This document shows positions 78-18,062 of a stretch of DNA of 64,000 nt, in pieces. Numbering within the stretch: position 1 is the stretch's first letter; every line of letters starts with the position of its first letter. The stretch comes from Candidatus Thorarchaeota archaeon (GTDB taxonomy: Archaea > Asgardarchaeota > Thorarchaeia > Thorarchaeales > Thorarchaeaceae). Position numbers and translations under genes: made by a program. The notes under the pieces are model-generated. The model was given only the letters and a program-made list of their open reading frames with translations, was not told where the DNA came from and did no database searches. The DNA is taken from contig JBHLRQ010000004.1 in NCBI GenBank assembly GCA_048882385.1, forward strand, positions 1-64,000, written 5' to 3'.

Positions 78-3000
78 TCATCGTTTCATACGGATTACAA
101 CAATCACCAATATAACTACGACACCAACTGTTCCAAGTACTATCCAGATTGTCATAAGTGGAATAGCGCCATTTCTAGGAGTAGTGGTGGTCGTTGTAGT
201 TGTTGTAGTGGGGGTTGTAGGAGGTTCTGTGACTGTAACTATCACACTATCACTCACAGTGTTACTCCCTTGATCAGCTAATACAATGGTGTAGTTGTAT
301 TCTCCTGCAGTCAGACCATCAGCATCGACTATAATTGGATCTGCACTAGAGGTCCAATCCCCAGTTTCTGTAGAAACATCATTAACAAAGACCTCATAGG
401 AAGCAGGATTCAGGTCGGAACCATGCCAAATGATGTTGTTTCCAGTTTCTCCAGCAACATACTCGATATCGTCAGGACTGTCAATGGTAGGACTGATTGT
501 GTCTACTGCATCAACAAGTACCATGTCTGAAACATGGTTGCCAGCTCCATCATACACCACTATTGTTAGGTTGTGAGTTCCTACAACCAGTGGATCTAGT
601 TCTACCTCTATAGGATCAAAACACCATGTCCGATTTGCAATGACGGTTCCATTCTGGTAGACAACAAAGCGACCAGGATAGTTGTCGGATGCTTGCCATG
701 CAATCTCATTACCTAAAGTGCCGGCTTCAAAGACTTCATCACCAGGACTATCAACGGTTGGTGTTGTACCATCAGTCAAAGAGATTGGGTATCTATCAAC
801 ACTAGACGACATGGAAATTGGATAGGTTCCAGGTCCCACATAATCACTCCAAGCATTTCCAGTTGTTACATTATCATCCCAGAGATTGTCGGTTCCACCA
901 TCTGCGGCATTTCCAATACCATTCCATCCAATTTCGTTCCAGTATACCATAATGTTAGTAGCAGAAAGGCTACTCAACATCACACCATATCCACTATTAC
1001 TATAGACGGAGTTGTTGTGGATGACTCCATGAGTACCGGCAGAAATGAAAATCCCTGGTGCGCCAAATGTTTGATCCAAATAAGTCCCAGATACTACATT
1101 CGAGGAGATATTGAAGAAGTCAGCATTTCCAGCATAAACACCATATACAGCATTGCATGAGATATTGTTCTTATGAACAGTTATGTTGGTTCCTTCTAAT
1201 TGAAGCCCATATCGATTATGAGAAATTGAGTTGTATGATACTTCATCATAGGGACGAACCATCAATATAGGAGCAACTTGATTCTCAGGAATGCCTAGAC
1301 CGTTTCTACTGATTGAGTTGTTAAGATAGTCTGTTGATTCAGAATATGGACTATATATCGCAGAAAATGGATTATCATCGATTGCATTATCGATGATGGT
1401 TGTATTTGTTGATGAGATCAGTTGGAGTCCATAATACGAGTTTTGCTTCACAGTTGCACCTTCTAGGGAACAGTTAGTGGTCAAAACGAATGTCACTCCA
1501 GAACTAACATCAGAAAAGTCCCCACCAACGATATTGACTCTACTTGAATTTGCAACCAATATTTGACCATAGAGATTCCCATCTACGGTCAAATCGGTTT
1601 CATTGAAGAAATAACCAAAGTGTTTACCATTGAGAGTGTTATGCTTCTCGATGAAGTAGTAGTCTGCCGCAGCAGGCATTCCCATTCCTACAACGAGTAT
1701 TCCGTTTCTCAGAAACACATTATTTGCAATCAGAGTTGAGGGAGATGCAGCTATCAGTAAACCAGCGCCTTGAGAATCAGATATATCACAATTAGTGACT
1801 CTAGCATTTTGGCTTCCGAATACCCAGACGCTAGCAGCAAAACCCAATAAACTGTGAAGACGCGAGTTGTCCTCAAGTACCATGTTGTTGAATGTGCAGT
1901 TAACGCTGGAAAGCATCATTGCACCAGCGAAATGATTTCCAGAGGATTTCGCATCGTCTATAGTACAATTTGTACTAAACGAAATGAAAACACCCAAAGA
2001 GGACTCGTTAAAATCACCCCCTGTTATAGAGCAGAACTTGGCTTCATGAAGAATGACCTGTCCATATGTCGATCCATCAATACTCAGATGTGTCTGATTC
2101 CAAACGTAAAGAATAGGTTTGCTGTTAATTATATCACCTGATGTTGTAAATCCAGGATTTCCAGGTATTAGGTTCTGAGGAAAGAAGCCACAACCAGACA
2201 ATATGTTGTTACTACAAACAATAGACTGAGGGCTCACTAAGAGTATACCGCTGATGGGACTATCATAGATTGTATTCTGTAGTACAGTACAATTTTGAGA
2301 GTTGGACATTTCTATTGCTGCTGGATAATACATGGTCCCTTCTGATCCATAGTTAAAATCATGGAGCGTGTTCTGATCAAGTGTGCAATTAGCAGAATAT
2401 TCGACCTTGATGCCTGTGAATGAGTTTGCCACTTCATTCTCAGTTACATTACAGAAGTAGGATTGCATTATGTGAATTCCATTTCCACGGTTGTTATCAT
2501 TTCCATCAATGTGGTTTTGTTCCACTTCACAATTATAGCTATATGTTAAATCCACACCTGAATTAACATTTCCTTCGATCTCATTGTCAACACACCAGGA
2601 ATCATTCACATAGTACAAATTCACAGCAGTTGTCTTGCCAGAAAAGATGTTAGAGCCAATGTAGGCATTTGTGACATTTTCGAGTGTGATGCCAACTGAA
2701 TAGTCATCGAATTCTGGCGCAAAATAGCAATTTGTGATTTTAAAGTAGGCTCTTGTGTTTCTGATTATAATACATTCGAGATTACTTGTGATATTCAAGT
2801 CATCAATGACGAACGGAGTTGTTTCTGAACCGTCTCCATCGAACCCTAGTGTTGTGAAATTATCATCATGATCAATTAGAATTGGACTGCTATCAGTATA
2901 GCTCATAACCCAACTAGTTTTCTGTTGAGTATTATCCTCGTGATAGAATCCAAATGGTTGAATAAAAAACGGGGATACTATCAAGAAACAAAGGATACCA

Positions 3001-3119
3001 AATAATACAGCTTTAATCTTCATTCTCATACTCCCTAACAAAGGAACAAACCATACCCTATTGTGATACCAGTAGATGTAACTGAAGTAAATATCTTCCG
3101 GAGAGTTATGAATCTGCAT
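78..3119 (-). CDS. Large cell-surface protein: parallel beta-helix (NosD/CASH-like) repeats, Ig-like repeats, Thr-rich linker, C-terminal TM anchor; real start probably ~3023-3029
   Basis: Repeated NCT/N-x-I-x-x-N units, signal-like MKIKAVLFGILCFLIV, PTTPTTTTTTT linker, hydrophobic C-terminus ending RMKR. Confidence 0.85.
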   Translation of the reverse strand: MQIHNSPEDIYFSYIYWYHNRVWFVPLLGSMRMKIKAVLFGILCFLIVSPFFIQPFGFYHEDNTQQKTSWVMSYTDSSPILIDHDDNFTTLGFDGDGSETTPFVIDDLNITSNLECIIIRNTRAYFKITNCYFAPEFDDYSVGITLENVTNAYIGSNIFSGKTTAVNLYYVNDSWCVDNEIEGNVNSGVDLTYSYNCEVEQNHIDGNDNNRGNGIHIMQSYFCNVTENEVANSFTGIKVEYSANCTLDQNTLHDFNYGSEGTMYYPAAIEMSNSQNCTVLQNTIYDSPISGILLVSPQSIVCSNNILSGCGFFPQNLIPGNPGFTTSGDIINSKPILYVWNQTHLSIDGSTYGQVILHEAKFCSITGGDFNESSLGVFISFSTNCTIDDAKSSGNHFAGAMMLSSVNCTFNNMVLEDNSRLHSLLGFAASVWVFGSQNARVTNCDISDSQGAGLLIAASPSTLIANNVFLRNGILVVGMGMPAAADYYFIEKHNTLNGKHFGYFFNETDLTVDGNLYGQILVANSSRVNIVGGDFSDVSSGVTFVLTTNCSLEGATVKQNSYYGLQLISSTNTTIIDNAIDDNPFSAIYSPYSESTDYLNNSISRNGLGIPENQVAPILMVRPYDEVSYNSISHNRYGLQLEGTNITVHKNNISCNAVYGVYAGNADFFNISSNVVSGTYLDQTFGAPGIFISAGTHGVIHNNSVYSNSGYGVMLSSLSATNIMVYWNEIGWNGIGNAADGGTDNLWDDNVTTGNAWSDYVGPGTYPISMSSSVDRYPISLTDGTTPTVDSPGDEVFEAGTLGNEIAWQASDNYPGRFVVYQNGTVIANRTWCFDPIEVELDPLVVGTHNLTIVVYDGAGNHVSDMVLVDAVDTISPTIDSPDDIEYVAGETGNNIIWHGSDLNPASYEVFVNDVSTETGDWTSSADPIIVDADGLTAGEYNYTIVLADQGSNTVSDSVIVTVTEPPTTPTTTTTTTTTTPRNGAIPLMTIWIVLGTVGVVVILVIVVIRMKR

Positions 3120-3377: not shown

Positions 3378-4322
3378 ATGGCTAGACCAGTGCGTGCCAA
3401 CACACAGTATCGGAAAGGAATGGCAGTTTGCTCCGTATGTGGTGGCAGTGATTTTTACGAAGACTTGACACGAGGTGAGAACATCTGCACTTCATGCGGA
3501 TGCGTATTGAACGAGAGGCTCTTAGACACAGGACCTGAGTGGAGAGCATTCACAGCAGAAGAGAGGAATGCCCGAGCCAGGACAGGCTCCCCAATGACAT
3601 TGACAATGGCAGACAAGGGTCTGGCAACTACAATTGGTTGGAGCGATAGAGACGCCAATGGAAGAGCGATTGCTGCTAGTAGTCGCGCTGCAATCTACAG
3701 GATGCGTAAGTGGCAAATCAGAACACTAGTTCACAGCTCCCAGCACCGAAATCTCAGTATTGCTATGAGTGAGATGGACAGGCTGACATCACAGCTTGGC
3801 GTCCCGCAGGAAACCAAAGAAACCTCAGCTCTGATCTATCGAAAAGCACTCAGTAGACGGCTTGTTAGGGGTAGAAGCATAGAAGGCATGGTGGCTGCAA
3901 CCATCTATCTCTCTTGCCGAATACACAAGATTCCAAGACAGCTTGATGAAATCGTAACTGAAGCAAGAGTCAACAGGAAGGAACTTGGACAGTGTGTCCG
4001 ACTAATCCTCAGAAATGTTGACGTGAAGGTTCCAATCCCTTCGGCCAATGATCTTATGCCAAGAATCTCAGCGGACCTAGGTCTTGATGGAAAGACAGTC
4101 CAGACTGCAATGAACATCATTAATGATGCTCGTGAAAGAGGTATTACAGCAGGCAAGGACCCAGGTGGTCTAGCTGCAGCTGCACTCTACATTGCAGGTA
4201 TCATTGAGGATGACAGACGCACTCAGAGAGAGATTGCTGAGGCATCTAATGTCACAGAGGTCACTGTCCGTAACAGATACAAGGATTTGGCTAACAGCCT
4301 TCAGATTACAATCAAACCATAG
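3378..4322 (+). CDS. tfb: Transcription initiation factor IIB (TFB)
   Basis: CxxC..CxxC zinc ribbon, DTGPEWRAF B-reader, two cyclin repeats, QREIAEASNVTEVTVRNRYK. Confidence 0.97.
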   Translation: MARPVRANTQYRKGMAVCSVCGGSDFYEDLTRGENICTSCGCVLNERLLDTGPEWRAFTAEERNARARTGSPMTLTMADKGLATTIGWSDRDANGRAIAASSRAAIYRMRKWQIRTLVHSSQHRNLSIAMSEMDRLTSQLGVPQETKETSALIYRKALSRRLVRGRSIEGMVAATIYLSCRIHKIPRQLDEIVTEARVNRKELGQCVRLILRNVDVKVPIPSANDLMPRISADLGLDGKTVQTAMNIINDARERGITAGKDPGGLAAAALYIAGIIEDDRRTQREIAEASNVTEVTVRNRYKDLANSLQITIKP

Positions 4323-4382: not shown

Positions 4383-5156
4383 GTGAGCAGACGGTTTCAG
4401 ATTCAAATGAACCAGTTCATTCTCGCTCTATGTGGACTTCCTGCATCAGGAAAATCCAAGCTTGCAGATGCAATCCAGAAAGCTTTGGAATCTGAAGTGG
4501 TGATTGTTAGAACTGATGACTGGCGAGATGATACATACTACACCAACTGGAAACCAGAGAAGGAAAAGTCCGTAAGAGAAGCTGCACTGGATAGAGTAAG
4601 AGAACAGGTTTCTGAAGGAAAGAGTGTCATTCATGATGACACGAATTACTACACGAGTATGCGGCATGAGCTCTTTGAGATAGCTGTTGAGAACGGTATC
4701 GGATTTTCAATCATTCATGTTTCAACGACTGTGACAACTGCACTCCAATGGAATCGTGAGAGACCAAACTCAGACATACCAGAAAGTGTAATCGAGAATA
4801 TATCTGAGAGATTCGACATTCCTGGAAAGCGCTATCTCTGGGATAACTCAGACTTGGAGGTCGATATGGAAGCAGACGACCTGTCAGCGGTCATCCCTGA
4901 GATCATTACGATTCTCGAGGAGATTAGTCCAGCAAGAGAGCCAAAACCCATGTTAGTCACAAGTAATGAATTCGATAAACTAGACACTGTAACGCGTCAA
5001 GTTGTGTCGGAGTTTCTCAAAGAAAACCCTGGGCTCAGAGGAAAAAGACAGGTTTCAGTCATACGACGCGAATTCCTTAGAACAGCCATCGAAAGGAGAA
5101 TGCCTTTGAAAGGAGTCAAGCAGGTACTTCTCGAGAGGCTGAACAAGTTGCTCTGA
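4383..5156 (+). CDS. pstk: O-phosphoseryl-tRNA(Sec) kinase (start possibly 4407)
   Basis: Walker A CGLPASGKS, DDTNYYTSMR motif of the PSTK/KTI12 family, next to tRNA-Sec and SepSecS. Confidence 0.88.
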   Translation: MSRRFQIQMNQFILALCGLPASGKSKLADAIQKALESEVVIVRTDDWRDDTYYTNWKPEKEKSVREAALDRVREQVSEGKSVIHDDTNYYTSMRHELFEIAVENGIGFSIIHVSTTVTTALQWNRERPNSDIPESVIENISERFDIPGKRYLWDNSDLEVDMEADDLSAVIPEIITILEEISPAREPKPMLVTSNEFDKLDTVTRQVVSEFLKENPGLRGKRQVSVIRREFLRTAIERRMPLKGVKQVLLERLNKLL

Positions 5157-5167
5157 AGGAACCCATT

Positions 5168-5440
5168 ATGACGGATCTGTACTTCGAAGATTACGAACCT
5201 GGGAGGAAACGGGCTCGTGGGTGGGAGTGTCTGGGTTCGGTGGTGATTCTCTGTGCATTGATTATCGGATTTACTCTGTTCTTCATGCTTTACGCATACA
5301 TCTGGGTACATATAGTGGAATCCCTGGTGCAACACGTTTTCGAGTTGACAATTATAGGTATGATCATAATTTTCTTGATTACGGTGTATGTGTGGAACAA
5401 TAGAAATTTGGAGAGAAGAAAGATTATGGCGGCCTCCTAA
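5168..5440 (+). CDS. Small hypothetical membrane protein, 2 TM
   Basis: 90-aa ORF 11 nt after pstk with two hydrophobic segments. Confidence 0.65.
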   Translation: MTDLYFEDYEPGRKRARGWECLGSVVILCALIIGFTLFFMLYAYIWVHIVESLVQHVFELTIIGMIIIFLITVYVWNNRNLERRKIMAAS

Positions 5441-5517
5441 GAGAATCGAACTCTCAACGCTTGCACGTTCATGGGTTTGAAGCCCACGGAACCAGACCAC
5501 CGGTCCTGTAGAAGGCC
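5427..5517 (-). tRNA. selC: tRNA-Sec (anticodon UCA)
   Basis: Minus strand folds as 9-bp acceptor GGCCTTCTA/TAGGAGGCC, 7-bp D-stem with UGGU loop, 6-bp anticodon stem with CU-UCA-AA loop, long variable arm AACGT-GCAA-GCGTT, 4-bp T-stem, G73 and encoded CCA (9/4 fold). Confidence 0.96.
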
Positions 5518-5560: not shown

Positions 5561-6208
5561 CTAAATGTAACGGCATATGACTTCGTGAGTTTCTCGTTTC
5601 CACTCAATGCTCTTCTTTGCAAGCTCTGAAGCGATATTACCAGGCATTGTTTTATCACGGGGAAGTGATTCGATCTTTGTCAACCATGCGGCAGTAGTTA
5701 GAGTGAGTGGAGGTACTCCGTCCTCCCCTTCTGTTGCCTTTATCATCATCTCTCTACCGTGTGCTACTTGAATATACACATCGTTTACTGGAGCCTTATT
5801 CAGAATTTCTCGGACCACTCTGTCCCAGCAAGTCTTTGCCACGAGAGCTCTCCTAAGTTTTGTCTTGTCCTCTTCAGGCAATGACTGATACTTTTCTAGA
5901 GCAGCACGCATCGCTTCAATATGATCATCAAGATAAACAGCTAAAGCTACCTCATCTTGTCCTAGAGCGATCAGCTCCATTGATGATCTCGACTCAGTGA
6001 CATTGATGATGACATTTGCCTCCTCGCCAGCGATTCTTAGTGAGAATTTAGCGGAACCTTGAAAATCTTGGCTCTCCGCCTCACTATGCTCTTCCAATAT
6101 CAAATTTGGTTTGGATGCGACCACGTACCAAGCAAGCCTGAATATGACCGCTGGTTCATCGCTGCTGAAGTTCAGTGTTCGAGAGACCTCTGCCATTTCG
6201 TCGTTCAA
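5561..6208 (-). CDS. Hypothetical protein within the selB-sepSecS-selC unit
   Basis: 215-aa ORF with GGGAGG RBS, 31 nt after sepSecS on the same strand. Confidence 0.8.
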   Translation of the reverse strand: MNDEMAEVSRTLNFSSDEPAVIFRLAWYVVASKPNLILEEHSEAESQDFQGSAKFSLRIAGEEANVIINVTESRSSMELIALGQDEVALAVYLDDHIEAMRAALEKYQSLPEEDKTKLRRALVAKTCWDRVVREILNKAPVNDVYIQVAHGREMMIKATEGEDGVPPLTLTTAAWLTKIESLPRDKTMPGNIASELAKKSIEWKRETHEVICRYI

Positions 6209-6239
6209 CTATCTTGCCCTCCCTCAGGGAGTTCATTGT

Positions 6240-7559
6240 TTATTTACTGGCTTCCTTATAGAGTTTGGTTGTTGCTGTCTCTATATCAATTTTTGAGGCG
6301 CCAATGGCTGCGTTCATTACAATATAGCTATGTGGATAATTATCTACTGATGAACCAGCTCCACCTTTTTCGATTGCTCGTGGACCAGTTACTCGTGCAT
6401 TGTAGAGTCTGGCTCCAATCTCTATTACATCCAACCCATCCATGGTAATCGCACAGGCTACTGGATTCCATACTGAGAGTACTCTCTGACCTAACTTTTC
6501 AGCTATCTCATCCATCCTCTTGTCTAGCATAGCTTTGTTATCGAGCTGTTCCTTTTGCAGGTCTTTGTAAGTGTCAAATCCAATTGCAAGTAGTGCAGCT
6601 AGAGTCTGAACAACAGGCGCTGCTGTAGCACGACCTGCATAGGTATCTGCAATAGAATCTGTGAAGTCCTTTTTCGGAGTGACTACGACAGCTGCACCAA
6701 CAGGCGCAAGGAAATTCTTGTCACTGCTCTGTACAACTGCATCGACTCTACCTGCGTCAATAGCGGCACGAATTTCACTCATCACTTTTTGAGACTGCAC
6801 ACCGTATGCATTATTGATTATTAGTGGAGTATCAGTTTCTGCACATATTTTTGAGATATCCTTCACTGGATCTGATAATCGTGGTGGAAAGAAGGTGGTC
6901 GTGGCTAGAACTGCAGTTGAATTACTCTTCTTGATTTCCTTCTCGAGGATACCAAAGTCAACTTGGACTGAATCAGCATCTATCAATGTTGGAATTGTCT
7001 TCTCCTCAAGCCCACTTAATGCAATGGCTCTCTTCGGTGATGTGTGATCTATTCGAGGATAGAGGACACGCTTCACTCCGTACTCTCTCCTAAGAGCTCC
7101 GAGAACGAGAGAAATGGTCATGCCTGTAGAAAGTGGTGTAACTAGTCCAGCTTTCACATTACTCAAACCTAGCTTTCGTATTGCATCAAGAGCCACTTTA
7201 TTTGCCACTTGCTGCATCTGAGAAGCTCCAGGAGCCTTGGGTTGGGGTGCAGCAAGCCTTCCACTCCTCCCTATACCATGATTGAATCCAACCGATAACC
7301 GAGCCACATAGGGTGATGCAACTCTTGCCTCGCGCTCACCAACTCGTACCGCCTCAGGATCTTTGTCAGTGTCCAAGGAAGATAGGAGCTGAAACATCAT
7401 CTCAAGCTGGAGGTCAGTCAATCCTTTCTCAGGAAACTGGCGTCGATTAAGCACATCCTTTACTGGACCAAGCAATGAATCAACAGTTGTGCGACCTCGG
7501 CGCAGCATGTTCTCTGGAATTGTCTTCTCGAGAATACGATCAATCTCATCATCATCCAA
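6240..7559 (-). CDS. spcS: O-phosphoseryl-tRNA(Sec) selenium transferase (SepSecS)
   Basis: VGEREARV, HGIGRSG, QPKAPG, NNAYG and VQSSDKNF (PLP lysine) motifs. Confidence 0.96.
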   Translation of the reverse strand: MDDDEIDRILEKTIPENMLRRGRTTVDSLLGPVKDVLNRRQFPEKGLTDLQLEMMFQLLSSLDTDKDPEAVRVGEREARVASPYVARLSVGFNHGIGRSGRLAAPQPKAPGASQMQQVANKVALDAIRKLGLSNVKAGLVTPLSTGMTISLVLGALRREYGVKRVLYPRIDHTSPKRAIALSGLEEKTIPTLIDADSVQVDFGILEKEIKKSNSTAVLATTTFFPPRLSDPVKDISKICAETDTPLIINNAYGVQSQKVMSEIRAAIDAGRVDAVVQSSDKNFLAPVGAAVVVTPKKDFTDSIADTYAGRATAAPVVQTLAALLAIGFDTYKDLQKEQLDNKAMLDKRMDEIAEKLGQRVLSVWNPVACAITMDGLDVIEIGARLYNARVTGPRAIEKGGAGSSVDNYPHSYIVMNAAIGASKIDIETATTKLYKEASK

Positions 7560-8934
7560 AGCTGTATTCCTCCTCGGTTAATCTTTGATAGTATACATCT
7601 TCATTTTCTGTTACAGCATCCTCAAATTTGACAATGACTACTCCTCGTGTACCGAACGGTTGCCTAATAATACCAGTTACTCCTTTCTTTGAATACACTG
7701 ATGCATGAACCAGACGTTCTGCAATCTCCTTTCTTGACGCCAATCCCGAAACCAGCACATCATTTTCACGAATTCGGTGAACCTTTCCAGTCCTGACTCT
7801 TGGACGCAGGAGTTTGACTTTTTGGGGAATATGTGTGGCTTCTCCTGCTCCAACAATTCTCATTTGTGTAGGAGGTAGATCTGTCCGATGCAAGAGAATC
7901 TTGGTTCCAACTCGAATAGAAACTGGTTTTTGTAAGAGAACTGCAGCAGCGAAAATGTCACTATTGGGTTCATCCACGACGATGCCTCTCTCATCCAGAG
8001 GAATAATCTGCCCTGTGACTGATGGCATACCAACTGATATGCTGACGATCATTCTTCGAGTAATCCTGCCTTGATATAATGGGTTTCTCTGTAACTTTGC
8101 TATGAATCCTGATGATGATGGAATACTCCCTATTGTGCATAGATAGTCCCCTCTAGTAATTTCAGAGTCATCAACATTTGGAATATTAATCCCGACACGG
8201 TCTCCAGCTGAAGCAGTTTCACGTTCTACACTAAAAGTCTGTATGGATCGTATTCGGCTTTTCTTTTTGAGGGGTGCAACCTCCACAGAATCACCAATCT
8301 TGACATTTCCTTGGAGTATAGTTCCTGTCACAACTGTTCCGTGACCCTTGATTGGAAAAGCATGGTCTATTGGCAGAATAAACGGACCGTCTGTATGTCG
8401 TGCCTTTGGTCTGATTATTTGTTTGAGTGCATCTTTGAGCTCGTTTATACCTTGATTGGTCTTAGCTGATACTCTGACAATCTTTGCGTCTGGAAATGAT
8501 GTGTCTGCAAGAATTGAACGAATCTTGGTTTCAACTTTCGTTAGTTGTGATTCGGCAACTATGTCAGTCTTTGTGAGAGCAACTACTAGAGAAGCAACAT
8601 CCATCGATTGAAGAACAACAATATGTTCGCCAGTCTGTATCATAGGTCCTTCATCAGCAGCAATCACGAGAATGGCAGCATCAATAATGCTTGCTCCTGC
8701 AACTACACTTCGAATCAGGTCAGCGTGCCCAGGGGCATCAACCAACGTCACCATAAACTTGTCCATTTCAAACATTGTGAAACCGAGATCAATGGTGATT
8801 CCACGTTGTTTTGCTTGCGGATGCTTGTCCAATCCTGCCGTGGAAACCTTCGAACTCAGTGCTTTAGCAAGAGCTGTCTTCCCATGATCTATGTGACCCA
8901 TGAGTCCCACATGGACTGGGACAAGATTCTCCAT
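7552..8934 (-). CDS. selB: Selenocysteine-specific elongation factor (archaeal SelB/EFSec type)
   Basis: GHIDHGKT, RGITIDLGF, DAPGHADL, DHAFPIKGHGTV; short archaeal/eukaryotic-type domain IV (PFGTRG); overlaps the sepSecS start. Confidence 0.96.
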   Translation of the reverse strand: MENLVPVHVGLMGHIDHGKTALAKALSSKVSTAGLDKHPQAKQRGITIDLGFTMFEMDKFMVTLVDAPGHADLIRSVVAGASIIDAAILVIAADEGPMIQTGEHIVVLQSMDVASLVVALTKTDIVAESQLTKVETKIRSILADTSFPDAKIVRVSAKTNQGINELKDALKQIIRPKARHTDGPFILPIDHAFPIKGHGTVVTGTILQGNVKIGDSVEVAPLKKKSRIRSIQTFSVERETASAGDRVGINIPNVDDSEITRGDYLCTIGSIPSSSGFIAKLQRNPLYQGRITRRMIVSISVGMPSVTGQIIPLDERGIVVDEPNSDIFAAAVLLQKPVSIRVGTKILLHRTDLPPTQMRIVGAGEATHIPQKVKLLRPRVRTGKVHRIRENDVLVSGLASRKEIAERLVHASVYSKKGVTGIIRQPFGTRGVVIVKFEDAVTENEDVYYQRLTEEEYSFG

Positions 8935-9516: not shown

Positions 9517-10587
9517 ATGGCAGAAGATGCCGATCATGTCGAAGAAACTGGCACAGACGAAGAGCAGTCCGAGCCAGAGGAAGAAGTGTACGAAGAGCTT
9601 GAAACTGTCGAAAAGAAAGAGGGTAGAAAGATTAGTCTTCCAGCAAATCCAGTAGGATTTCTTCTGAATTTCAGAATGCTACGAAGATTTGTTCAGCTAG
9701 TCTTTTTGATTGGAATTAATGGGTACGTACTTCTCGCTTGGTTCCATATGCCAAACGTCCAAGCATTTTGGCTTTCCATTTGGAGTAATTTGCCAACATT
9801 ACCAATCCTTGCTCCTCTGGAAGCACCCTTTGGGGCAATTGCAGGTTCTTTTGATACTTTGATACGTGAGTTTTCATCAGGAATATTCCCACTCTTTACG
9901 ATTGGAGCGATGCTGGTCATACTGATTATCGTTGGTCGTGCTCCATGCGGGTGGATATGTCCAGTTGGTACGATTCAGGATTTTGTTACACTTCCAAAGA
10001 GAACTAAGACTCGCCCTCCGCCTAAAACTGAGGAGGAACTACGAAAGGTAAAACCATATGTTTTCATCATAGTTGCATTTCTTGCAGTCTGGGTTGGATT
10101 TGCTAGAATCACTGGTTCAGCTGAATCGCTAGAGGTAGCTCTTGGAGCCTTTGTTGACGATGCATTTGCACCTTTGAACCCAGCGTATATCCTATTTGTT
10201 GTGCTACCTCAGCAGGCGGAACTAGGTCTATGGCCAACTGATTTGAACACATTATGGTACTTCTCACAATGGGGTTGGCCATTAGCTCAGATGGGATTTG
10301 TCATATTGGTGTTCTTGATATCATTCTGGGTTCCACGATGGTTCTGCAGATGGCTCTGTCCTGCAGGATGGTTCTATAGCGTCTTCTCTAGGGATGCCTT
10401 GATTGGATTAGGAAGGAATCCTGCAAGATGCACTCCAGACACATGCAATGTGTGTGAGGTGGTATGTCCAATGAATATCAGAATCAGGAAATTCCCATAT
10501 CAGCGCATGCATAGTCCAGATTGTATCATGTGCCTGGACTGCAAAAGCCACTGTCCGAATGACGCAATTGTCATTAGGTTCTCATAG
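9517..10587 (+). CDS. Membrane 4Fe-4S protein, NapH/MauN family
   Basis: CGWICPVG and FCRWLCPAG motifs, TM helices, C-terminal ferredoxin CxxCxxCxxxCP. Confidence 0.9.
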   Translation: MAEDADHVEETGTDEEQSEPEEEVYEELETVEKKEGRKISLPANPVGFLLNFRMLRRFVQLVFLIGINGYVLLAWFHMPNVQAFWLSIWSNLPTLPILAPLEAPFGAIAGSFDTLIREFSSGIFPLFTIGAMLVILIIVGRAPCGWICPVGTIQDFVTLPKRTKTRPPPKTEEELRKVKPYVFIIVAFLAVWVGFARITGSAESLEVALGAFVDDAFAPLNPAYILFVVLPQQAELGLWPTDLNTLWYFSQWGWPLAQMGFVILVFLISFWVPRWFCRWLCPAGWFYSVFSRDALIGLGRNPARCTPDTCNVCEVVCPMNIRIRKFPYQRMHSPDCIMCLDCKSHCPNDAIVIRFS

Positions 10588-11263: not shown

Positions 11264-12256
11264 TCAAGTATTCATATTCTTAGGAGTGAGAATGCCACCT
11301 TTGGAGAAATCAAAGAGGACCTTCTCCTCAGCATCAAGGCGTAGCCTTACTTCCTTTGAATTATTTACAATTCCGACTACAACAGACGTCATTCCATGCC
11401 TCGAAGCAATCTCTTCCACTCGTTCTAGGTTTTCATTGGGAATGGAAATCAAAAAACCAAGCGAGATGTACATACGTAGCCAGTCATCAAGATCTATTCC
11501 TGAGGGTCTTGACGAATCAATAGCGTTAAGGTCAAGGGTTCCGCCCTTTCCAGAATACTCAAGCATCATTGCAGCTGTGCCAACAACACCAGCCACCGAC
11601 ACATCTTTTGATGCAGTAAGTAGTTGTTCACTAGCAAGAGAGTTCATTACTGAGAGTCGTAACACAACCTCCTCAGAAGACCTGTCTGTGACTGAATCCC
11701 ATCCAAGTTTGTAGCTTTCACCCCTCTGACCAACTCTGTCAAACAGGAGAATCAAGGTGTTACCGTCTTCTGCACCTCCAGCAGTAAGTAGGTTACTCTC
11801 GAGAACAGTACCGGTTGCTGATCCTACAACATATGTTGAGCTAGAACTTGGATTAGTGTGACCTCGAACAATAGGCACTCTGAACGTCTGAGAACCTGCT
11901 ATTAGACCATCAAGTATTGCTTCTCCTATTGTCGGGTCGGAATATGAGAGAGCTACTGCAAAAGATGTTGGTGTTCCTCCTGCAGCATAGATATCCATCA
12001 TGTTGGCAAGCACAGCATTAAAACCAGCCGCACGTGGATGATTCAAGCATAGGTCTTCAACAATAGCATCAGTTGTTAGAAGCACGAAATCGTCGCATCC
12101 TGAATCAATGGCTGCGGAGTCCTCCCCTAGGCTATGGGGTGTATCCCCATTGAAAGATTCAAGTCGGAGTTTATCAATAATAGAGGGCAAAACGAACTTG
12201 CGTGAGATTCCATCGAAACTCAAAAGAAGTTTCATAATCTCATCAAGACGATTCAC
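11264..12256 (-). CDS. AIR synthase-related protein (PurM/SelD/HypE superfamily)
   Basis: GEDSAA, NMMDIYAAGG, GHTN, SKDVSVAG motifs. Confidence 0.85.
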   Translation of the reverse strand: MNRLDEIMKLLLSFDGISRKFVLPSIIDKLRLESFNGDTPHSLGEDSAAIDSGCDDFVLLTTDAIVEDLCLNHPRAAGFNAVLANMMDIYAAGGTPTSFAVALSYSDPTIGEAILDGLIAGSQTFRVPIVRGHTNPSSSSTYVVGSATGTVLESNLLTAGGAEDGNTLILLFDRVGQRGESYKLGWDSVTDRSSEEVVLRLSVMNSLASEQLLTASKDVSVAGVVGTAAMMLEYSGKGGTLDLNAIDSSRPSGIDLDDWLRMYISLGFLISIPNENLERVEEIASRHGMTSVVVGIVNNSKEVRLRLDAEEKVLFDFSKGGILTPKNMNT

Positions 12257-12826: not shown

Positions 12827-13624
12827 TCATCTTTTCTCAGCAAGACGGACAAGCGTGGTTAGTCGCTCCTTTCCGCCTTCTACGATTCGTATATTTCTTT
12901 CAAAACGATACTTTGTTATTTCATAGGTATCTCTTGAAACATCCCCGATTCTGAACTTAGCATTCACCCTACTGATTTCTTTCTCAAGACGCTTGAGAGT
13001 CTTATTTATTCCATTTATCCATTTTTTGGCAGTTTTGATTGCATTCTTTAGATTCTTGCGAAGCTCCTTTAATGTATCAATGATTTCACTCCGTTGTTCA
13101 TTGTAGACATCTTTGTCGACTGTACCTGAGATATCCTCAAGTTTTGATAATCGTCCCTCATGGATGTCAAGAGCTTCAAGTAGCTGCTCCAGAACTAGTT
13201 TTTCTTTAACCATCTTCAGTTCTCTTCTTCGATTCTTGGTTTTCTCGAATTCGGAACGCAACTCCTCTGCACGTATTGTTAAAACGGACTTGTTAGCTTG
13301 CTTTAGCTGAAGAGCTTGCCTCGTTGCTTTTGTTTTGTCAATCAATATATCCAGTTCTAGGTCAACAACCTCAAGTTCTGCTCTAGCCAGAAGGACTATT
13401 GCAGCTTCATACTCCATATCGGATATTGTTACATCGAAATGAGGGTATGACACCTTTGTGACTTGTTCCACATCTAAAGAAACGGGTTTTTCATCATCCA
13501 TAGGATCGGGTGTTTCTGGATATGGAGAATCCTCTGAATGAAGTGGTTTTCCGCAAAGCTTGCAATATCGTCCATCAGGGACCTCAAGATTACAGAAGGG
13601 ACACAGGACAAAGGATTCAGACAT
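12827..13624 (-). CDS. Zinc-ribbon plus long coiled-coil protein
   Basis: CPFC...CKLCG at the N-terminus, heptad-rich C-terminal two-thirds. Confidence 0.8.
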   Translation of the reverse strand: MSESFVLCPFCNLEVPDGRYCKLCGKPLHSEDSPYPETPDPMDDEKPVSLDVEQVTKVSYPHFDVTISDMEYEAAIVLLARAELEVVDLELDILIDKTKATRQALQLKQANKSVLTIRAEELRSEFEKTKNRRRELKMVKEKLVLEQLLEALDIHEGRLSKLEDISGTVDKDVYNEQRSEIIDTLKELRKNLKNAIKTAKKWINGINKTLKRLEKEISRVNAKFRIGDVSRDTYEITKYRFERNIRIVEGGKERLTTLVRLAEKR

Positions 13625-16208: not shown

Positions 16209-16976
16209 TTAATCCTCCCTTTTCTGAAACATTATTGCGATGGGAGAGTTCGCCTGACGCCATTCCGCGAGTTTGCCTTCGTAATCTAGAGGAACTGGAT
16301 GGCGACCATGATTGCCAATTACGATAAATAGAGTCCCAACTCTTGCTTGTCTAAGAAGCACTTTGATCCAGTTGTCAGTTCGACGCACAATTTTCTCTAG
16401 AAGTGTTTTTGGCGGAGTTCTGTGTCCATATTGTGCATAAAGGCTCTCAAAGTCCAAGAAGTGAAGATACAAAAGTTCGCTTTTGAAGATGTGTTTTGTT
16501 GCCTCGATATAGGTGGCCATATCGTCTCTGGGTCGAACTGTAAATGCAGGGTCGAAATCACATTGAACCATGTCTTCTTCACGGCAAATAACTTTGGTTA
16601 CTTTTCCGGAGTTCCTGACATGTTTGATAAGGTGGAAGTCAGTTCTATGACCTTTCAGTAGTCTTTTGATGAGAGGTAACGCATAAGGATCAGTAGTTTC
16701 AAGTAGAGCCAAAGCTTCCATGTTTTTAATAAGAGCCTCAGGTTTGTACACCACTGCTTCAAAGAGTCCGAAGTTGTCAATCATAATTATGACAACTGCC
16801 TTCGGATTGAATTTCTGTAGCAACTCTTCATTTGGAGGAAAGAGTCCTTCAGGAATCTCTATACCTAGTAATTTCAAGACTGTCGCAGGAAACTCTAATG
16901 CTGTGGTTCGTACCTGTGGAAACGACATTCCTCTTCCTCGGTGGTGTTCCTGTTTTTGTTCGTAAATCCGCCTCAA
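16209..16976 (-). CDS. Divergent alkaline-phosphatase-superfamily protein
   Basis: VIIMIDNFG, LYLHFLDFE, IVIGNHG motifs. Confidence 0.7.
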   Translation of the reverse strand: MRRIYEQKQEHHRGRGMSFPQVRTTALEFPATVLKLLGIEIPEGLFPPNEELLQKFNPKAVVIIMIDNFGLFEAVVYKPEALIKNMEALALLETTDPYALPLIKRLLKGHRTDFHLIKHVRNSGKVTKVICREEDMVQCDFDPAFTVRPRDDMATYIEATKHIFKSELLYLHFLDFESLYAQYGHRTPPKTLLEKIVRRTDNWIKVLLRQARVGTLFIVIGNHGRHPVPLDYEGKLAEWRQANSPIAIMFQKRED

Positions 16977-17099
16977 TAAGGTTTGGTAGATAGGCTCTGC
17001 AGTAATGTATCTGCTGCATATTCTTCAAGCTTCTTTAACCTATGGCCGATGGAAGAGTTAAAAAACTCACCCGAGCCTCGAACCTCAAGGGGCAAACCA

Positions 17100-18062
17100 A
17101 TGACTCTTCGGGACATCATATACAAAGACACTGTCAAGTTCATCCTATCTGGGGGAAAAGGAGGAGTAGGAAAAACTAGCACAGCAGGAGCTATGGCAGT
17201 GCTATCTGCAAGGCATGGTTTTCGTACATTAGTACTCTCTACTGATCCAGCACATAGTCTAAGTGATAGTTTTGACCAAGATCTCTCTGGAGGAGAAGTA
17301 ATTCCGATACAGGGCTTTGACAATCTTTGGGGCATGGAGGTAAATACAGCAAAAGGAATGGAACAATTCCAACAAGCCATGGGAGAAGGCACAATAGGTC
17401 CTGAAGCACAAATGGCTGCAGGTCTGATGGGCGATATGACAGGAATGGCACCTCCTGGTTCTGATGAGGCAATGGCTTTTGGCAAAATTCTTGAATTTAT
17501 TGAAGACTCCTCATACGATCGGGTTATTTTCGACACTGCACCCACTGGGCACACACTTAAACTACTTGAACTACCGGACCTTTTGGATAGCTGGTTGGGC
17601 AAAATACTGACTATGAGACAACGACTCAGCTCCATGATGTCAGGACTGCGTAGTATGTTTGGAGGCGGGGATCAAGAAGACTCCTCTTGGCAAATGATTC
17701 AGCAGACGAAAGACAAGATATATGCAGCAAGAGTCGAATTATCAGACCCTGATACAACTCAGTTTGTTGTAGTGATGATTCCTGAAGCAATGGCAGTTTT
17801 TGAAACACAACGCCTGTTGGCAAGCCTCGACTCTTGGCACATTCCAGCCACCCATTTGATAGTCAATCAACTAGTACCTCCAAATCCATCATGCAAGTTC
17901 TGTTCAAAACGGCACGAAATGCAAGAGGCTAATATGGTTGATATTCGAGAGTTGTACTCAGACCTAGACCTGACAGAAGTCCCACAATTCGAAGGAGAGA
18001 TAAGAGGGATTGAGGGTCTCACAAAACTGGGCAAGATACTCATCGGAGAAGCTGAGGAATAA
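17100..18062 (+). CDS. arsA: ArsA/Get3 (TRC40) family ATPase
   Basis: GGKGGVGKTS, STDPAHSL, PGSDEA, DTAPTGHT, Met-rich insert, CKFC; ATG at 17100 preferred over the ORF start at 16983. Confidence 0.93.
   Translation: MTLRDIIYKDTVKFILSGGKGGVGKTSTAGAMAVLSARHGFRTLVLSTDPAHSLSDSFDQDLSGGEVIPIQGFDNLWGMEVNTAKGMEQFQQAMGEGTIGPEAQMAAGLMGDMTGMAPPGSDEAMAFGKILEFIEDSSYDRVIFDTAPTGHTLKLLELPDLLDSWLGKILTMRQRLSSMMSGLRSMFGGGDQEDSSWQMIQQTKDKIYAARVELSDPDTTQFVVVMIPEAMAVFETQRLLASLDSWHIPATHLIVNQLVPPNPSCKFCSKRHEMQEANMVDIRELYSDLDLTEVPQFEGEIRGIEGLTKLGKILIGEAEE

Follow-up and report, generated by a model that had tools for sequence, protein, structure and literature searches.

Eukaryotic SECIS-binding proteins of the SBP2/L7Ae type link the SECIS element to the selenocysteine (Sec) elongation factor. 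Proteins that organize neighboring steps are also familiar: in methanogens, SepCysE serves as scaffold for the SepRS-SepCysS complex, and in eukaryotes SECp43 is a partner of SepSecS. How SECIS is connected to the Sec elongation factor in archaea is a long-standing question, and Asgard archaea stand at the archaea-to-eukaryote transition of the system. According to two papers (PMC4989117 and PMC11227280), no archaeal SECIS-binding protein is known. A gene linked to sepSecS is an obvious candidate for the SECIS connection and has been flagged before by others: PMC11227280 (ISME J 2024) describes a hypothetical protein, with MBD3157761.1 as an example, that is restricted to Asgard archaea and encoded near secS, efSec, and pstk.

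The gene analyzed here, ORF215, occupies a comparable position in a window of 64,000 nt, the whole stretch of Candidatus Thorarchaeota DNA that was examined (contig JBHLRQ010000004.1). The features of the locus are the following, with coordinates given in the window.

3378-4322, plus strand: TFB gene, past tRNA-Sec
4383..5156, plus strand: PSTK-like kinase (257 aa), convergent with tRNA-Sec; KTI12, 9e-36
5427..5517, minus strand: tRNA-Sec, anticodon TCA; ARAGORN, and Rfam RF01852 at 58.2 bits (gathering score 47)
5561..6208, minus strand: ORF215 (TTG start, 215 aa), member of NF045535 Sel_Asgard
5564..5881, minus strand: C-domain of ORF215, residues 110-215 (bundle in the model 112-212), up-down four-helix bundle in the AlphaFold2 model
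5882..6208, minus strand: N-domain of ORF215, residues 1-109 (fold in the model 6-109), beta-alpha-beta4-alpha two-layer alpha/beta in the AlphaFold2 model
6217..6225, minus strand: Shine-Dalgarno-like GAGGGAGGG, inside the 31-nt spacer between sepSecS and ORF215
6240..7559, minus strand: SepSecS (439 aa); PF05889, 7e-114; TIGR03531, 445 bits (cut-off 225)
7552..8934, minus strand: archaeal SelB/EFSec (460 aa); TIGR00475, 307 bits (cut-off 242); aSelB_III
9517..10587, plus strand: NapH/MauN-like membrane polyferredoxin (Fer4_5), a recurrent single-copy neighbor
12827..13624, minus strand: Zn-ribbon and coiled-coil protein in which the motif G-x-[IV]-D-x3-Y is repeated

The genes selB, sepSecS, ORF215, and tRNA-Sec follow one another in this order on the minus strand, with selB and sepSecS overlapping by 8 nt. 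The sepSecS stop codon (TAA, 6242-6240) is separated by 31 nt from the ORF215 start at 6208, the GAGGGAGGG element lies 8 nt upstream of the TTG start, and 43 nt lie between the ORF215 stop codon (5563-5561) and tRNA-Sec, which begins at 5517. By these coordinates, the preliminary description was correct in presenting a co-directional 215-aa ORF with its own ribosome-binding site and with both of these gaps. The kinase owes the name PSTK-like to its best hit and gene context, since its TIGR03574 score (144 bits) is below the cut-off of that model (290). A 5-bp hairpin, CTCCC-TCA-GGGAG in the plus-strand reading (6219-6231), overlaps the ribosome-binding site of ORF215 and could modulate its translation initiation. 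At the near end of the window (78-3119, minus strand) lies a gene for a 1013-aa parallel beta-helix surface protein (NosD-like repeat), with a linker rich in Thr and a membrane anchor at the C terminus. The RNase P match in the window marks the DNA as archaeal.

ORF215 matches the NCBIfam equivalog NF045535, “Sel_Asgard, putative selenocysteine system protein,” at 221.1 bits (E = 1.1e-65; cut-off 132), residues 16-211 covering positions 2-194 of the 195 in the profile, and a search of the whole genome with this profile returned ORF215 at 220.9 bits. We see no difference between ORF215 and this family, the name of which rests on gene neighborhood and is already carried at NCBI by close homologs from Thorarchaeota MAGs; a full-text literature search found no paper that uses the NCBIfam product name. 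At E ≤ 1e-3, we recovered 326 homologs (90% clusters), and single-sequence phmmer against 1.84 billion 50% clusters gave only 16 representatives at the same threshold. Among the 120 homologs listed, most of which come without an organism name, the names given are all Thorarchaeota or Promethearchaeota, and Sel_Asgard was found in 0 of 14 control genomes. Given the 326 homologs, the NF045535 match, and a dN/dS of ~0.1 among Thor orthologs, ORF215 is not a chance frame; it is a real, conserved, Asgard-specific gene. The hypothetical protein of PMC11227280 resembles it by description, being Asgard-exclusive and often located beside Sec machinery; MBD3157761.1 itself was absent among the Sel_Asgard cluster members that we looked up. 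Because the family is both curated and published as a Sec-neighborhood gene, ORF215 is not novel: the gene was rightly called uncharacterized, but the candidate put forward as new had already been named and flagged.

The linkage of Sel_Asgard to sepSecS is real. We took the best-scoring loci from other genomes, 31 in number, of which 18 are in f1 (the window's own GTDB family) and 13 in f22 (which we term Loki-like from the names on its proteins). SepSecS lies directly upstream of Sel_Asgard in 29 of them; one of the two exceptions is cut by a contig end and the other has no SepSecS inside the 1.5-kb flank. Within f1, tRNA-Sec comes after Sel_Asgard in 15 of the 18 loci. Families f4, f16, and f17 likewise show the order selB-sepSecS-Sel, whereas the Sel_Asgard gene of f15 is divergent from selB. 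Since the Thor and Loki Sel_Asgard proteins share only ~15% identity (they differ by up to ~85%), the sepSecS-Sel pair has been together for a very long time, and in Loki it is kept though the remaining Sec genes are scattered. The association with sepSecS, selB, and tRNA-Sec is tight and widespread.

The phylogenetic profile of Sel_Asgard against Sec is imperfect on both sides. Across 400 genomes of the phylum, 281 have a Sel_Asgard match, which exceeds the cut-off in 250, and 279 have a SepSecS match, which exceeds it in 239; strong matches to both co-occur in families f1, f4, f16, f17, f21, f22, and f23. All five f30 genomes have SepSecS and none of them has Sel_Asgard; f18 and f19 have SepSecS without an adjacent Sel_Asgard and with weak Sel_Asgard matches only (E 1e-9 to 1e-19); and Methanocaldococcus jannaschii, used as a control, has SepSecS and no Sel_Asgard. 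We discarded the Rfam tRNA-Sec model as a marker of Sec elsewhere: its sole match over cut-off, in the genome G299, is a tRNA-Leu according to ARAGORN, and a Sec-positive genome (G308) falls below the cut-off.

On the other side of the profile, family f14 has Sel_Asgard in 19/19 genomes (17 over cut-off; genomes 72-91% complete). In these 19 genomes, SepSecS gave two weak matches and none over cut-off, and both PSTK, with the window protein as query, and SelB domain III (aSelB_III) were found in 0/19. Sel_Asgard without a credible SepSecS also occurs in f29 (4/4 genomes), f28 (2/3), and f6 (3/4, with matches below cut-off). The median pairwise dN/dS in f14 is 0.064 (47 of 136 pairs usable, the others being saturated), the corresponding values being 0.101 for Thor (10 of 120 pairs) and 0.115 for Loki (11 of 36 pairs), and Sel_Asgard in f14 is under strong purifying selection. 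Retention by way of the Sep-tRNA:Cys pathway (SepCysS/SepRS) cannot explain this pattern, as SepCysS is over cut-off in none of the 19 f14 genomes. Occurrence in Sec-negative genomes, which the preliminary description had named as an observation that would tell against it, is therefore common in part, in these four families.

The clearest evidence on Sec independence comes from two natural deletions within the window's own family. In G370 (f1, 92% complete; L088, G370:C1), selB, sepSecS, tRNA-Sec, and pstk are cleanly lost and Sel_Asgard is intact; the locus reads TFB, Sel_Asgard, ORF133, NapH-like, ModE-like, AIR-synthase-like, Zn-ribbon/coiled-coil, EndA, and PhoU_div, which is the order of the window minus pstk, tRNA-Sec, sepSecS, and selB. 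The same four Sec genes are lost in G341, which belongs to the window's own genus (91% complete; L089, G341:C136), and here the intact Sel_Asgard is followed by a stub of 32 residues that matches SepSecS residues 408-439. Both losses of selenocysteine are recent and arose independently in this family; counting all f1 genomes, six combine a strong match to Sel_Asgard with none to SepSecS. In a maximum-likelihood tree of the protein family, the Sec-negative sequences form no separate clade, the deep branches being without resolution. Because Sel_Asgard stays intact and under purifying selection after the loss of all Sec genes, its core function does not appear to depend on selenocysteine.

The AlphaFold2 model of ORF215, built from a 30-sequence alignment, has a pLDDT of 93.9 and a pTM of 0.90, and it confirms the division into an alpha/beta N-domain and a helical C-domain that had been read from the letters. 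Only five alignment columns are invariant (F23, D129, R152, E153, and K204), and four of them, all but F23, belong to the C-domain. The family alignment contains no conserved Cys/His and no P-loop or nucleotide-binding motif. No Pfam family matched ORF215 at E ≤ 1, in line with the reported lack of an L7Ae motif, and Pfam searches with 30 Sel_Asgard family members gave scattered weak matches only, with L7Ae in 0/30. Residues 1-108 carry a net charge of -12 (pI 4.3), as expected from the acidic N-half noted earlier, and residues 109-215 a net charge of +2; Thor proteins are acidic overall (pI ~5) and Loki proteins mildly basic. The lack of an RNA-binding domain and the acidity of the Thor forms would favor protein binding over RNA binding, as had been suggested. 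With neither a catalytic nor a nucleic-acid-binding signature, an adaptor role is the most likely one, and ORF215 fits a protein-binding adaptor and not an enzyme or an RNA binder.

Structural comparison gave a graded picture. Foldseek against the PDB returned nothing at E ≤ 1e-3, the family profile against PDB sequences found designed proteins and noise only, and the best score in the ESM Atlas was 0.78, with no informative cluster. Among Foldseek candidates realigned with VIA-align, the C-domain is matched best by 2j9w_A, the C-terminal domain of Vps28 (Z 13.1; rmsd 2.2 over 100 of 101 residues), the next unrelated row having Z 11.2; in an unbiased search, Vps28-C 2j9u_A (Z 11.1) does not stand apart from CheA P1 (Z 11.7) and further bundles. 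Z scores of this size are often seen with helical bundles, and four-helix-bundle similarity is weak evidence by itself. Matches of the N-domain are generic: the phosphopentomutase C-domain (Z 11.2), Bet v1-like proteins (~9-10), Roco COR (9.8), and KA1 (9.6). It also aligns to the platform of the beta2-adaptin appendage (residues 843-937; Z 9.3, rmsd 2.6-2.7), where many unrelated alpha/beta folds tie, and the AP-4 beta appendage (Foldseek E 0.039) is tied in the same way with many unrelated alpha/beta folds. A HEPN nuclease of the RnlA type was considered and rejected: the Rx4-6H motif is missing, the invariant R152 having no conserved His after it, and the RnlA matches in Foldseek have E 0.0075 or worse and TM ~0.25.

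A further connection is provided by a long paralog. Most f22 genomes have a second, weaker Sel_Asgard match, which in G149 is the C terminus of a 788-aa protein that also contains Zn-ribbons, an Ig-like domain, and winged-helix repeats (PCI/UFL1-type/DDRGK). More generally, ORF215 is homologous over its whole length to the last ~200 residues of the Lokiarchaeal ~790-aa proteins annotated “PCI domain-containing / DUF2042”: its columns 14-210 align to residues 586-783 of this family (hhalign, 195 columns; Prob 97.8%, E 1.2e-12; HMM E 5e-17). ORF215 is the module alone, located after sepSecS, whereas the ~790-aa paralogs do not lie beside Sec genes. The paralog family has 286 members at E ≤ 1e-3; a precomputed PF03997 (VPS28) match is present in 57 of the 120 paralogs listed, and the paralog tails score 24.3-25 bits against PF03997, about its cut-off. 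Longer fused forms were also sought through the family alignment and none was found, by a search that is weak, since it also missed the known 790-aa paralogs. PMC10936438 describes Asgard multidomain proteins that combine Vps28-C with Ig-like and HTH/PCI domains and, in many cases, an adaptin appendage, and the ~790-aa paralogs with PF03997 fit this class as it is described there.

The bundle of the ORF215 C-domain has the same four-helix fold as the C-terminal domain of Vps28, a subunit of ESCRT-I, but the N-terminal helical hairpin of Vps28 (steadiness box, ESCRT-I headpiece) is absent, the N-domain of ORF215 being instead a five-stranded alpha/beta fold. ORF215 had no PF03997 match, either in Pfam at E ≤ 1 or in the genome search with that model, and hhalign of its family against five genuine Asgard Vps28 proteins gave a Prob of 3.5%. 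The link of ORF215 to ESCRT is accordingly one of fold and of transitive evidence only. Co-distribution with Vps28 was set aside as an argument, since some of the families with Vps28 genes have Sel_Asgard and others do not. As a separate observation, three Loki-like genomes have a genuine Vps28 gene on the contig that carries sepSecS and Sel_Asgard, only ~7-8 kb away from this pair and with housekeeping genes between (L043 (G149:C2) 1363-2007; also G185:C34 and G205:C1).

Beyond the Sec genes, the most recurrent neighbor is the NapH-like polyferredoxin, which is single-copy at E ≤ 1e-10 in the 5/5 genomes checked. It is located beside the Sec cluster in G000 and G128, beside Sel_Asgard alone in G100 and G370, and ~2-3 kb from the 790-aa paralog in G149, with the same spacing in G185 and G205; it adjoins Sel_Asgard in 19/19 f14 genomes. 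Its orientation varies, being divergent from selB in Thor and convergent in f14 and f19. In G002 (f4) it is far from Sel_Asgard, the query used did not find it in G117 (f16) or G304 (f29) although Sel_Asgard is present in these two genomes, and no NapH-like gene was seen at the Sel_Asgard loci of f15, f17, f28, and f6. This polyferredoxin may be functionally linked to the Sel_Asgard module or to selenium handling. At least six Asgard families (f14, f29, Loki, f4, and f19 among them) have homologs of the Zn-ribbon/coiled-coil protein within 1-7 kb of the Sel_Asgard/Sec locus; the protein was rejected as a specific partner, since it is phylum-wide and present in 5/5 Sel_Asgard-negative families checked. 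We treat both neighbors as leads, not findings.

Three further observations concern genes around the Sec cluster. The window encodes an AIR-synthase-like protein of the PurM/SelD superfamily (11264-12256, minus strand; best hit TIGR03267, “methanogenesis marker 2,” below cut-off), 2.3 kb from selB, and this gene is kept in the Sec-deleted G370. In f18 and f19, which have no adjacent Sel_Asgard, a protein with an AIR-synthase-like N terminus (by eye) comes directly after sepSecS or tRNA-Sec (L047:7005-7985 and L054:7259-8242). In the Loki-like G149, a Roadblock/LC7-domain gene directly follows selB (L043 (G149:C2) 16910-17335, plus strand); Roadblock proteins commonly regulate GTPases.

Based on these results, we propose with moderate confidence that ORF215, with its Vps28-C-like bundle, is an adaptor and not an enzyme, and that its core role does not depend on Sec. 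It would represent, in stand-alone form, a two-domain module specific to Asgard archaea, an acidic alpha/beta platform followed by a Vps28-C-like four-helix bundle, acting in protein-protein contacts. In Sec-using Asgard archaea, Sel_Asgard is probably co-transcribed with selB-sepSecS, judging by spacing alone, and its product may serve the selB-sepSecS machinery; conservation of the sepSecS-Sel pair at ~15% identity in Loki, where the other Sec genes are scattered, speaks for some role connected with Sec in the organisms that use it. The core role, in contrast, would be independent of selenocysteine. The reading of the preliminary description, in which ORF215 is a candidate for the missing Sec-recoding factor, goes further: the protein would be dedicated to Sec, either as an adaptor between SelB and SECIS (or a SECIS-bound L7Ae-type protein) or as a scaffold for PSTK, SepSecS, and SelB, along which Sep-tRNA-Sec/Sec-tRNA-Sec would be channeled. 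With such a role, the copies in Sec-negative lineages would have been taken over for another use. The tight and deeply conserved sepSecS-to-Sel order, the co-occurrence with SepSecS in seven families, and the vacancy left by the lack of a known archaeal SECIS-binding protein (PMC4989117 and PMC11227280) all speak for such a role. We nonetheless consider it unlikely that ORF215 is a dedicated recoding factor, and the claim does not hold up well against its retention under purifying selection in Sec-negative f14, its presence in f29, f28, and f6, its survival of clean deletions of the flanking Sec genes in two Thor genomes, its absence from Sec-positive f18, f19, f30, and M. jannaschii, and the lack of an RNA-binding domain in a protein that is acidic in its Thor forms.

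Two other explanations place the function of ORF215 outside Sec. ORF215 could be a working partner of the NapH-like polyferredoxin, such as an adaptor on its cytoplasmic side, and the connection with Sec would then be an indirect one through a shared neighborhood for redox or chalcogen handling. This would agree with a single-copy partner located near the Sec cluster, Sel_Asgard, or the paralog in all five genomes checked, with its constant adjacency in f14, and with an orientation relative to the cluster that differs between Thor and f14/f19; the genomes inside one family are not independent, however, and the partner is distant, not found, or not seen in the f4, f16, f29, f15, f17, f28, and f6 cases given above, so that we regard this explanation as doubtful. 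Alternatively, ORF215 could be an ESCRT-related adaptor of the Vps28-C type, its adjacency to sepSecS being inherited synteny without functional meaning. The best match by structure is to the C-terminal domain of Vps28, the paralogs carry PF03997 matches, and the block of Zn-ribbon/coiled-coil, AIR-synthase-like, ModE-like, and NapH-like genes persists with or without Sec; SPFH/Band 7 genes also occur near Sel_Asgard in f14 and f6, and a contextual link between ESCRT and SPFH is described in PMC10936438. We find this alternative quite improbable, given that comparing profiles with genuine Asgard Vps28 gave no significant similarity, that the distribution of Vps28 does not track Sel_Asgard, that the window's genome has no PF03997 match over cut-off, and that no ESCRT gene adjoins Sel_Asgard in the loci examined. 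Moreover, synteny alone poorly explains why the sepSecS-Sel pair is kept in the shuffled Loki cluster.

The adaptor that we favor can be set beside the Sec systems described at the outset. With the eukaryotic SBP2/L7Ae-type proteins, ORF215 shares the hypothesized job only, that of linking SECIS to the Sec elongation factor; unlike them, it has no L7Ae domain, is acidic, and persists without Sec. A possible analogy is with SepCysE and SECp43, ORF215 being comparable to a small non-enzymatic organizer of a tRNA-dependent amino-acid conversion. At a more speculative level, and with a low probability in our judgment, the Vps28-C-like adaptor might connect SepSecS/SelB with the recoding site in those Asgard archaea that use Sec, where the SECIS is eukaryote-like and SBP2 is missing. 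If so, ORF215 would be a functional counterpart of SECp43/SBP2 derived from an ESCRT-type module, and its survival after the loss of Sec would reflect a second, Sec-independent partner.

For the Sel_Asgard family, the question is narrowed to that of a two-domain adaptor related to an ESCRT-type Asgard module, which the natural deletions suggest is needed even without selenocysteine. In view of these deletions, a dedicated recoding role should not be assumed, and a partner that persists in Sec-free lineages should be sought.
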